Source: Staphylococcus phage RQ1. Taken from it: DNA of 64,000 bases. Location: sequence record PV344601.1; one strand, written 5' to 3'. The notes under the pieces are model-generated. The model did no database searches. It was not told the DNA's origin and saw only the letters and a program-made list of their open reading frames with translations. Shown piece by piece: positions 25,145 through 26,300 of the stretch. The translations under genes and the position numbers were made by a program. Numbering within the stretch: the stretch's first letter is position 1; the number at the start of each line of letters is the position of its first letter.

Positions 25145-26300
25145 TAAAAATTCTAACATCTCTTTTATAATTAAATTATAAAGGAGATATACAATGATAA
25201 AAAGAGAAGAATTAGAAGATTTATATGTTAAAAAAGGATACTCACAAATAAAAATTGGAAAAATTCTTGGATGTAGTGACTGGAAAGTAAGAAAATATAT
25301 GAAGATATATAACATCCAGACTAGAAGTAATAGAGAACAAGCATTAAAATATCAAGTAAACGAAAACTATTTTGATAAAATAGACAGTCAGAACAAAGCT
25401 TATATTTTAGGGTTTTTATATGCTGATGGATTTATTCAGGGCGCTAGAAAATACAGTTCTCGTAAACTAGGCATATCTATCCAAGAAAAAGATAAGGAAT
25501 TGCTAGAAGATATAAATAAGGAATTGGAGTCTACATATCCCATTAAAAAATACCATACTTCTGGTGGATATAAAATAGGGATTCCTTATGTCAGATTATT
25601 AATATCTTCCCCCCAATTATGTGAGAAAGTAATAGAAAAAGGCTGTTTAGAACATAAGACAGAAAACTTGTTTTTCCCATCTGAAGAGCAAGTTCCATAT
25701 GACCTACTTCCATCATTCTTACGAGGATATTTCGATGGAGATGGTAGCATATATTATTCTAGCACATGGAATGTTAGAATGATGGGAACTATACCTTTTT
25801 TGACAGAAATTATAAATTTATTTGACTTAAAAGAGAAAAAATTATACAATAGGAACCCTGATAGTAAAACAATAAACAGGGAGTTATCATTTAAAATAAA
25901 TGAAAGTCTTGATTTTTTAGAGTTTATAAACAGACATAATGGTATAACATTAGATAGAAAAAACACTAAAATAAAAGAGATGTTAGAATATTACAGTCGT
26001 CTATAATAGTGATGTTATAGATTACGAGGTGTTTAACTCAAAAGAGGTGTGAGTTTTTATAACTTGCTAACACTGAAAGTCTAAGTGCGAAAGCATATGA
26101 TAACGGTGTGCCAACTACTATAGTAGAGGTTCAACGACTATCCGAAAGCTAGGGCAAATAATAAATACTAGCAACAGGAGTAGGGCTATCTGAAATGATA
26201 GTAGGTGAAAACCCTTTAAATCGAAAATACACCCATCTTGTAAAAGATGAATAAATAGTCTATTCCCTTTAAAATACTAGGAAACTAGGGGTACTATAAG
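25145..26300 (+). mobile_element. group I intron in the DNA polymerase gene, carrying a LAGLIDADG homing endonuclease ORF
   Basis: Split polymerase ORF. Internal HEG has its own RBS. 3' core sequence gttcaacgactatcc..aacaggagtagggc..ggtgaaaaccctttaaatcgaaaa ends in G. The same core recurs on the minus strand at 63030-63330. Confidence 0.7.
25194..26006 (+). CDS. LAGLIDADG homing endonuclease (double-motif), intron-encoded
   Basis: Two motifs, LGFLYADGF and LRGYFDGDGS. RBS aaaggagat. Confidence 0.8.
   Translation: MIKREELEDLYVKKGYSQIKIGKILGCSDWKVRKYMKIYNIQTRSNREQALKYQVNENYFDKIDSQNKAYILGFLYADGFIQGARKYSSRKLGISIQEKDKELLEDINKELESTYPIKKYHTSGGYKIGIPYVRLLISSPQLCEKVIEKGCLEHKTENLFFPSEEQVPYDLLPSFLRGYFDGDGSIYYSSTWNVRMMGTIPFLTEIINLFDLKEKKLYNRNPDSKTINRELSFKINESLDFLEFINRHNGITLDRKNTKIKEMLEYYSRL

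Follow-up and report, generated by a model that had tools for sequence, protein, structure and literature searches.

An interrupted polymerase gene and its junction

How can an intact replicative polymerase be made from a gene whose reading frame closes inside a catalytic motif and reopens more than 1 kb downstream? This question is raised by a DnaE-like DNA polymerase gene in the 64,000 nucleotides (nt) of DNA from Staphylococcus phage RQ1 (PV344601.1), a Sextaecvirus-like Staphylococcus siphovirus; this whole 64-kb stretch is referred to here as the window. In this gene, 1156 nt separate two parts of the polymerase, and an earlier note had read them as a group I intron with a double-motif LAGLIDADG homing endonuclease. 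The observation is real and lies far beyond chance, given a local match to the group I intron model (E = 1.8e−6) and a covariation-supported fold, and the interpretation is supported by that match (Rfam RF00028), the compensatory changes, the U and G at the two ends and the predicted LAGLIDADG fold. The segment is thus very probably a mobile group I intron of the P7.1/P7.2 (Twort/K) type within a DnaE-type replicative polymerase gene, which would be spliced from the transcript and spread by its own endonuclease.

To begin with, the polymerase region matched 53 Staphylococcus phage records, the best being phage PT1-4 (88% nucleotide identity over 76% of the query), where coverage was partial because PT1-4 lacks the central segment. 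The open reading frame (ORF) 23777–25147 corresponds to the coding frame of exon 1 through to its stop, with Pfam matches to PHP (7.8e−23) and to profile positions 11–103 of DNA_pol3_alpha (PF07733), and exon 2 matched profile positions 104–259 of the latter, DNA_pol3_finger and HHH_6. As previously noted, the exon carrying the PHP domain ends in a TAA read directly at 25145–25147, which opens the intron in all 14 related copies, and the polymerase frame, placed at about 26301 before, resumes exactly there (IDIDSEASKREEIMELAR) with PF07733 position 104. Moreover, the alignment of the joined exons (25144 to 26301) gave the seamless protein that had been anticipated, 1255 amino acids (aa) long, with no gaps and 94.5% identity to the uninterrupted 1255-aa polymerase of PT1-4, rising to 100% in the 200 aa around the junction.

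The junction (...AGLPD/IDIDSE..., the slash marking the intron) lies within the catalytic PDxDxD motif, between the codons for PD and IDID, and the Pfam profile breaks there at the adjacent positions 103 and 104. The last exon base is a U and the last intron base a G. The boundaries cannot be shifted, because the conserved Asp would be lost by a one-base move to the left and the terminal G by a one-base move to the right, and therefore the coordinates 25145–26300 are exact. The predicted spliced RNA reads ...CCUGAU joined to AUUGAC..., and the predicted joined-exon DNA site of the window is TTGCCTGAT followed by ATTGACATT (also written TTGCCTGAT followed by ATTGAC), the PT1-4-type intron-less site being GCAGGGCTCCCTGAT followed by ATCGACATTGATTC.

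Ribozyme fold and covariation

The stretch of RNA after the ORF, given as about 300 nt ending in G by the earlier note, measures 294 nt up to G26300. A permissive scan of 1.5 kb (25000–26500) matched the full-length RF00028 model at 25980–26283 (33.7 bits), in an alignment including the core segments GGUUCAACGACUA (J6/7-P7) and AAUAAAUAGUC (J8/7-P7′). The covariance model check proposed earlier was only partly borne out: the local match stood, but its score fell below the gathering score and the default window scan was empty, so that the covariance model alone would not confirm the intron. The intron was missed in the whole-window E-value scan because of the filters, and RF00028 fits introns with P7.1/P7.2 and a 5′ ORF poorly, which lowers the formal call and not the functional reading.

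Since the score was below the threshold, relatives were collected to judge the fold, the ORF-less ones comprising those of phages SEP9 and PMBT8 plus four from IMG/VR and metagenomes, and the ORF-containing ones coming from Logan and ENA assemblies. A structure was drawn by hand on an 11-copy alignment and its pairs were counted, using columns slid by 1–3 positions and 500 shuffles as controls. Standard pairs filled 99.8% of the 829 cells (76 pairs, 11 copies), and 21 of the 76 pairs showed changes on both sides, compared with 0–3 in the slid controls and a value reached by none of the 500 shuffles. An independent RNAalifold run recovered the same helices with 20 compensatory pairs. The compensatory support fell on P2, the two hairpins before P4, P4, P5, P5a, P6, P6a, P7.1a, P7.2, one more hairpin and P8, so that covariation expected of a group I intron was found among the core helices (P3–P8).

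Furthermore, three covarying hairpins lie between P7 (26136–40) and the motif ACACC (26229–33), the 3′ strand of P3, which is located immediately before P8 and was set by homology with the SEP1 endolysin intron; this is the P7.1/P7.2 arrangement of IA-type (Twort-like) introns. The labels P7.1 and P7.2 were tentatively assigned by reference to the Twort crystal structure. These hairpins, together with the likeness to the Twort and K/SEP1-like introns described below, place the ribozyme in the P7.1/P7.2-bearing IA-type of Staphylococcus phages.

Two other candidates for P3 were rejected. The one drawn by Rfam (AACUU-G-CU with CG-A-AAGCU) is not kept in SEP9 and clashes with two compensated hairpins, and a second one (UUGCU/AGCAA) clashes with the covarying P7.1a. 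Other local Rfam matches (Pospi_RY, tp2 and DUF2815 RNA) were dismissed (E ≥ 0.12). Regarding exact-word searches, a scan of metagenome and genome collections with the 18-mer GATTACGAGGTGTTTAAC yielded mostly chance matches in coding genes encoding DYEVFN, and only L096, L131, L139, L153 and L154 were true relatives. Among loci L132–L167, the 18-mer appeared in many unrelated bacterial genes (e.g. epimerase-like) through the same DYEVFN; because of this, exact-word scans with intron sequence may return coding look-alikes. The 16-mer GGTTCAACGACTATCC was discarded as a generic group I core motif, with at least 120 unrelated viral loci matched.

Splice-site pairing and the reading frame in the P1 loop

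The 5′ splice site can be paired with an internal guide (AGUCG) lying about 850 nt downstream. In the pairing of UGAU and the first intron U with AGUCG, U25144 can form a wobble with G25996 at the cleavage site, and both this pair and the terminal G26300 were found to be invariant in all copies. The GUCG of the guide is likewise invariant, its first base being A, or G in L006–L008, where the wobble with the first U of the intron is retained. In ORF-less copies, UAA is followed by 4–6 nt, AGUCG and P2, and UGAU/U(A) pairs with (U)AGUCG in a short P1 with a loop of 3–6 nt, whereas ORF-containing copies have about 845 nt in place of the 4–6 nt between TAA and AGUCG; therefore, the endonuclease gene sits in the loop of P1. 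Its last codons (Y-Y-S-R-L-stop) cross the guide and enter the 5′ strand of P2.

The two ends of this loop are perfectly complementary over 19 bp. The duplex has an energy of −23.1 kcal/mol, and when the two 50-nt end segments were shuffled 3000 times no complement exceeded 12 nt. Folded together, the two ends adopt P1, the 19-bp helix and P2 as their minimum-energy structure. The 8-nt core of each strand (ATTCTAAC and GTTAGAAT) was present in all seven ORF-containing copies examined. In addition, the Shine-Dalgarno sequence of the ORF is buried in a hairpin (−12.6 kcal/mol, z = −5.3 against 200 shuffles) that can also be drawn in the homologues. Eleven bases of the 5′ strand of the long-range helix are also the 5′ arm of this hairpin, so that the two structures cannot coexist. 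The long-range helix is read as the way in which the ribozyme would tolerate a gene in its P1 loop, and the hairpin as limiting translation of the endonuclease, which would otherwise unwind the guide and P2.

A precedent is provided by the td intron of phage T4, where the exon frame also stops just inside the intron, and the ribosome-binding site of the endonuclease is hidden in a hairpin, with poor translation from the precursor. I-TevI is a GIY-YIG enzyme whose ORF lies in the P6 region of that intron, and to our knowledge a long-range helix competing with the hairpin has not been described there.

A tentative extension, which we consider rather doubtful, is that the cassette in the P1 loop acts as a co-transcriptional switch, with the endonuclease lineage defining the site and invading resident introns. 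The local hairpin would form first and keep ribosomes off the ORF during transcription; the stronger 19-bp helix would displace it once the 3′ end of the ORF emerges; and that helix would then assemble P1 for splicing and simultaneously free the Shine-Dalgarno sequence. If so, the enzyme would be made mainly after, or from, splicing-competent or excised RNA, and this order would keep translation from blocking maturation of the polymerase mRNA, because translation of the ORF crosses the guide and P2. A promoter-like motif (TTAAAA-16-TATAAT) was also found at the intron start (25144–25171), from which transcripts would begin inside the hairpin; such motifs were no more frequent than in shuffles, and a promoter at this place is hypothetical. 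Intron endonuclease genes of kayviruses have their own promoters or expression signals (PMC7698491).

The encoded LAGLIDADG protein

The separately initiated LAGLIDADG frame pointed out by the earlier note was recovered as an ORF of 270 aa with two LAGLIDADG_3 stretches (Pfam, 40.9 bits against a cut-off of 22.5), which also matched phrog_4645 (endonuclease, 1.7e−52). The two motifs are LGFLYADG (D78) and RGYFDGDG (D183), and the acidic residues D78 and D183 closing each LAGLIDADG helix were invariant in 65 homologues. A total of 477 homologues were found in a large protein collection, with seven clusters at 70–96% identity, all of 270–272 aa, and the exact protein sequence of the window falls in a 68-member cluster that is wholly metagenomic. 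The AlphaFold model, built with the 65 homologues, was confident, with a predicted local distance difference test (pLDDT) score of 92.7, and presented a three-helix bundle followed by two alpha-beta-beta-alpha-beta-beta-alpha units, the helix and strand order of the two-domain saddle fold. The sequence-only search of the PDB with this ORF gave no match, and a fold search was needed: the best Foldseek matches were the bI3 maturase, I-AniI, the I-OnuI family and PI-PfuI (probability of 1.00, template-modelling scores of about 0.5–0.6). Moreover, the ratio of nonsynonymous to synonymous substitution rates (dN/dS) was 0.08–0.16 among four diverged copies, with dS up to 1.5; therefore, the protein is maintained by selection. 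It is predicted to be a helix-turn-helix (HTH)-LAGLIDADG homing endonuclease whose target would lie in the motif that DnaE-type polymerases conserve best.

The rarity of LAGLIDADG enzymes in phage introns, also remarked upon before, was overstated. Homologues were detected by tblastn in 162 phage records, 91 of them from Staphylococcus phages and including I-MsaII in kayvirus recA introns, so LAGLIDADG genes are not rare in introns of Staphylococcus phages.

The elements described above suggest the following course of events. A ribosome translating exon 1 would stop at the UAA made by the first three intron bases. The splice site at U25144 would pair with the guide at 25995–25999, with the endonuclease gene in the P1 loop between them and the 19-bp helix closing the loop and bringing the strands of P1 together. 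The core (P3–P9) would excise the intron through two guanosine-dependent transesterifications and join ...CCUGAU to AUUGAC..., restoring an intact polymerase. The 270-aa protein would cut intron-less polymerase alleles of co-infecting relatives near the site, and repair would copy in the intron together with a few tens of flanking exon bases. Translation of the endonuclease would be held down by the Shine-Dalgarno hairpin, mutually exclusive with the 19-bp helix. Splicing appears independent of the protein, because the isolated phages SEP9 and PMBT8 carry the same ribozyme at the same site without the ORF.

Distribution of alleles and competing explanations

The insertion site was uninterrupted in PT1-4, the closest sequenced phage, and in about 40 other Sextaecvirus-like records, and among the records of this group it was interrupted by an ORF-less intron only in SEP9 and PMBT8. 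The ORF-containing form was absent from the deposited phage genomes searched. It was found in a metagenomic Logan contig (L179, SRR34340272), whose intron is identical to that of the window (1156 of 1156 positions), whereas identity drops to 81% in distal exon 1, 88% over its proximal 300 nt and 97% in exon 2; on the two sides of the intron, the perfect match reaches no further than −29 and +44. The full sharing of an intron between polymerases that have diverged indicates a probable recent transfer. Likewise, the ribozyme of the ORF-less locus L154 is 97% identical to that of the window, with polymerase exons just 76–79% identical. Regarding the flanking codons, which were compared in the window and loci L001–L009, L096, L131, L139, L154 and L169–L176, all 11 intron-containing alleles had TTG-CCT-GAT before the intron (25136–25144 in the window) and 10 of them had ATT after it (26301–26303). 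The same amino acids are encoded in seven intron-less alleles by CTN or TTA-CCN-GAY upstream of the site and ATC downstream. These site-linked synonymous codons may trace back to co-conversion, to a constraint set by P10/P1 pairing or to alleles that resist cleavage. Overall, the patchy presence, L179, L154 and the linked codons would fit homing with short co-conversion tracts, although splice-site pairing constraints or cleavage-resistant alleles could leave the same patterns. A co-conversion gradient was clear in the comparison with L179, and none was clear in that with PT1-4.

Several observations weigh against a spliced, homing group I intron. The RF00028 score did not reach the gathering score (33.7 against 50 bits), and neither the default Rfam scan of the window nor the whole-window scan at E ≤ 0.01 gave a match. 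P3, P7 (GACUA/UAGUC), P7.1, P9 and P9a were invariant across the set, so that covariation is no test of them, and either of two invariant GGUGU copies could supply the 5′ strand of P3. P1 includes only four exon base pairs. Little or no variation was seen in the strands of the long-range helix or in the hairpin arms around the Shine-Dalgarno sequence, and their function is therefore read from thermodynamics and statistics only. Finally, an identical intron in diverged backgrounds could come from ordinary recombination of co-infecting phages without any cleavage.

Spread by such general homologous recombination, instead of endonuclease-initiated homing, would account for the ORF-less form also standing in diverged polymerases (as in L154), and the genomes of this phage group are mosaic. 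It is nevertheless unlikely in view of the strong purifying selection on the ORF and of one endonuclease lineage sharing this site across four widely differing phage groups, whose polymerases are only about 22–42% identical, and ORF-less forms may be recent losses, as the homing cycle predicts. It is quite unlikely, too, that the intron splices but its protein has lost its endonuclease role, or has another besides, being a degenerate passenger or a maturase helping the RNA to fold. The best structural matches (the bI3 maturase and the bifunctional I-AniI) and the overlap of the ORF 3′ end with the guide and P2, which entangles protein and RNA, would agree with this. However, the catalytic D78 and D183 are invariant, the dN/dS values speak against decay, a maturase is not required because isolated, viable phages have the same ribozyme without the ORF, and an identical intron with short identical flanks in a diverged polymerase is what homing is expected to produce.

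A naturally split polymerase, in which the two ORFs are translated separately and assembled without RNA splicing, the intervening RNA being a relic, would explain the stop codon ending exon 1, the ATG at 26340 in the exon-2 frame and the annotation of the polymerase as separate coding sequences (CDSs) in the records of PMBT8, SpP and several S-CoN phages. This is highly improbable, as the break falls inside the catalytic PD/IDID at adjacent profile positions, a start at 26340 would delete IDIDSEASKREEI, the 21 compensatory pair changes keep a group I fold, unlike in a relic, and the protein of the closest relative is uninterrupted and identical over 200 aa at the site. Lastly, an intein or a group II intron is hardly conceivable: LAGLIDADG inteins are common in DnaE genes and the ORF shares the frame of exon 2, but instead of an in-frame intein there is an ORF bounded by stops (25145–25147 and 26004–26006, then TAG), with its own Shine-Dalgarno sequence and ATG (25194) and no intein splicing blocks, and neither a reverse transcriptase nor a group II match was found.

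Relatives in other phages

The mobile group I intron proposed for the window is not new in kind. SEP9 (vB_SepS_SEP9, KF929199) and PMBT8 (MK893987), from the same genus-level group as the window, carry an ORF-less intron at the common site CCTGAT/ATTGA, with the ribozyme 88% identical over 304 nt and all helices kept. Their introns are 317–318 nt long with a 4–6-nt P1 loop, in contrast to the window, where that loop holds a cassette of about 845 nt and both the 19-bp helix and the Shine-Dalgarno hairpin are present. In the record of SEP9 the polymerase is annotated as a joined CDS.

In Bacillus phage 0305phi8-36 (L168), ORF240, a DNA polymerase III alpha gene, is annotated as ‘interrupted by a mobile intron’ and is accompanied by the ‘mobile intron protein’ gp36, which is 38% identical to the ORF of the window (E = 4e−36), both being HTH-LAGLIDADG proteins. 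The insertion point was checked (SPPD/IDVDF) and is homologous to that of the window. Homologous HTH-LAGLIDADG genes were also found in introns at the DnaE site of Alicyclobacillus phage KKP_3916 (AD/VDID) and Lysinibacillus phage LC76P1 (AD/IDID). With 0305phi8-36, these represent three further Bacillota phage groups, and the DnaE polymerases of the three phages are about 22–42% identical to that of the window. However, the ribozyme of 0305phi8-36 has a different scaffold, with P7 strands 38 nt apart instead of 123 nt and without P7.1/P7.2, no nucleotide similarity to the window intron beyond the P7 decamer, and an ORF beginning 73 nt from the 5′ end of the intron, apparently beyond P1-P2. 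The shared site and differing scaffolds imply one endonuclease lineage in at least two kinds of ribozyme at one site, which suggests that the endonuclease gene, and not the intron, may define the site and invade resident introns. As further observations, all parts are annotated as ‘hypothetical protein’ in KKP_3916 (L180) and LC76P1 (L181), the 5′ region of the LC76P1 intron (GGUGUGAGCUUAAUAGCUUGCUAAC) resembles that of the window, and the intron of 0305phi8-36 had no Rfam match at all. Routine Rfam annotation will under-call phage introns of the window and 0305phi8-36 types.

The introns of the myoviruses Twort (orf142/terminase) and K/SEP1-like (lysK/endolysin) resemble that of the window in carrying P7.1/P7.2 after P7 and before the 3′ strand of P3, and the P7.1/P7.2 block of the SEP1 endolysin intron is homologous. 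Their P7-P7.2 block is 72–79% identical to that of the window and their P7′-P9 block 93% (42–135 nt overall), but they occupy other host genes, and their endonucleases differ from the one here, most being of the HNH type; the SEP1 endolysin intron has its ORF downstream of P4-P6, unlike the P1-loop position in the window. I-MsaII and the related ‘DOD’ endonucleases of kayvirus recA introns are also LAGLIDADG enzymes in group I introns of Staphylococcus phages, although they are 27% identical to the window ORF over 94% of the query and differ in target gene. A further homologue (34% identity) was located in Bacillus phage vB_BsuS_PJN02 (L182, 2459–3297), annotated as two CDSs between two ‘RecD-like DNA helicase’ CDSs; therefore, the lineage also occurs in a helicase-gene intron.

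Other insertions were observed in polymerases of this group. Staphylococcus phage SpP (L004, 2754–3913) has a different group I intron about 10 codons upstream in the same polymerase (after ...LPYWR), with an ORF annotated as ‘intron-associated endonuclease’ that begins with GYIYETTNLKNGKKYIG, a GIY-YIG signature; a single gene thus hosts unrelated intron and endonuclease pairs at two neighbouring sites. PMBT8 (L003) presents a second interruption at about 4796–5698, after the residue aligned to position 616 of the window protein, with a 185-aa ‘hypothetical protein’ ORF in the gap and exons annotated as separate hypothetical proteins. In OR354837–OR354839 (S-CoN_Ph14-16) and PP034389 (CF9), the polymerase is annotated in 2–5 pieces with interspersed hypothetical proteins and an uninterrupted PD/IDID site, which suggests further insertions elsewhere in the gene.

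Three things are new, though modestly so: an ORF-containing intron within this phage group, an endonuclease gene lodged in the P1 loop with a 19-bp helix closing it, and a Shine-Dalgarno hairpin that competes with that helix. Open-access articles on Sextaecvirus phages make no reference to the intron. Polymerases of this group are often deposited as multiple ‘DNA polymerase’ or ‘hypothetical protein’ CDSs (PMBT8, SpP, KKP_3916 and LC76P1), and the exact junction permits a correct joined annotation of an intron that the default Rfam threshold misses. Moreover, the intron-less, ORF-less and ORF-containing alleles at one site, including an identical intron in diverged backgrounds, form a compact natural series that suits the study of endonuclease-gene gain and loss, co-conversion and the conflict between ORF translation and ribozyme folding. 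The enzyme would be an uncharacterised HTH-LAGLIDADG nuclease, and the current understanding of group I introns is unchanged by these findings.

Feature coordinates and neighbouring genes

Coordinates of the polymerase exons, the predicted intron and its parts in the window
Feature	Position	Strand	Basis
Promoter-like site ahead of the polymerase start codon, TTGACA-17-TATTAT with TG	23704..23732	+	Consensus scan, 11/12 matches
Polymerase exon 1: PHP domain and first part of the DnaE palm, ending ...ERAGLPD	23777..25144	+	Pfam; colinear with PT1-4
P1, 5′ strand (exon UGAU and intron U), holding the 5′ splice site	25141..25145	+	Pairs with 25995-25999; minimum-energy fold of the two ends
Predicted group I intron, 1156 nt	25145..26300	+	Gap-free joined-exon alignment to PT1-4; U25144 before the 5′ splice site; G26300 last; RF00028 match
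UAA stop in the exon-1 frame, first three intron bases	25145..25147	+	Direct reading of the sequence
Long-range helix, 5′ strand, 19 bp, extending P1 and closing the ORF loop	25150..25168	+	Perfect complement of 25971-25989
14-bp hairpin (25158-25171 with 25175-25188) burying the Shine-Dalgarno AAGGAG (25181-25186) of the ORF	25158..25188	+	Folding
Putative homing endonuclease gene, 270 aa: three-helix HTH-like N-terminus (about residues 1-50) and double-motif LAGLIDADG core	25194..26006	+	Pfam, PHROG, AlphaFold, Foldseek
Long-range helix, 3′ strand, inside the ORF (codons 260-266, IKEMLEY)	25971..25989	+	Complementarity
Internal guide AGUCG, P1 3′ strand, within the last ORF codons	25995..25999	+	Copy comparison
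P2 hairpin (26000-26008 with 26013-26021), ORF stop UAA (26004-26006) in the 5′ strand	26000..26021	+	9 bp, 3 compensated; RNAalifold
Ribozyme core and periphery	26022..26300	+	RF00028 alignment, manual structure, RNAalifold
P3, 5′ strand GGUGU	26028-32 or 26046-50	+	
Two hairpins	26037-39/26044-46 and 26051-55/26061-65	+	RF00028 alignment, manual structure, RNAalifold
P4	26070-75/26104-09	+	
P5	26079-81/26099-101	+	
P5a	26085-88/26093-96	+	
P6	26110-12/26128-30	+	
P6a	26115-18/26123-26	+	
P7	26136-40/26256-60	+	
P7.1	26141-43/26177-79	+	
P7.1a	26148-52/26168-72	+	
P7.2	26185-90/26197-202	+	
Further hairpin after P7.2	26203-05/26213-15	+	
P3, 3′ strand ACACC	26229-33	+	
P8	26234-39/26244-49	+	
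P9	26265-67/26289-91	+	
P9a	26277-80/26285-88	+	
Terminal G	26300	+	
Polymerase exon 2: IDIDSEA..., rest of the palm, fingers, HhH domain	26301..28700	+	Pfam; colinear with PT1-4

The promoter-like site upstream of the polymerase is only suggestive, such sites not being enriched over shuffles in the region. Outside the polymerase gene, a free-standing HNH-type endonuclease gene was found at 21959–22672 (plus strand; phrog_374, 3.5e−72; no Pfam match), flanked by a 103-aa ORF and a membrane-protein gene. It represents a variable insertion, because the neighbours are adjacent in L179 without the gene. Furthermore, two paralogous ORFs of about 420 aa at 30465–31766 and 37770–39011 (both on the plus strand) matched phrog_4538 and phrog_9084 (homing endonuclease). 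They carry HTH domains at the C-terminus and a treble-clef zinc-finger motif, and resemble further free-standing genes of the homing-endonuclease-like kind.

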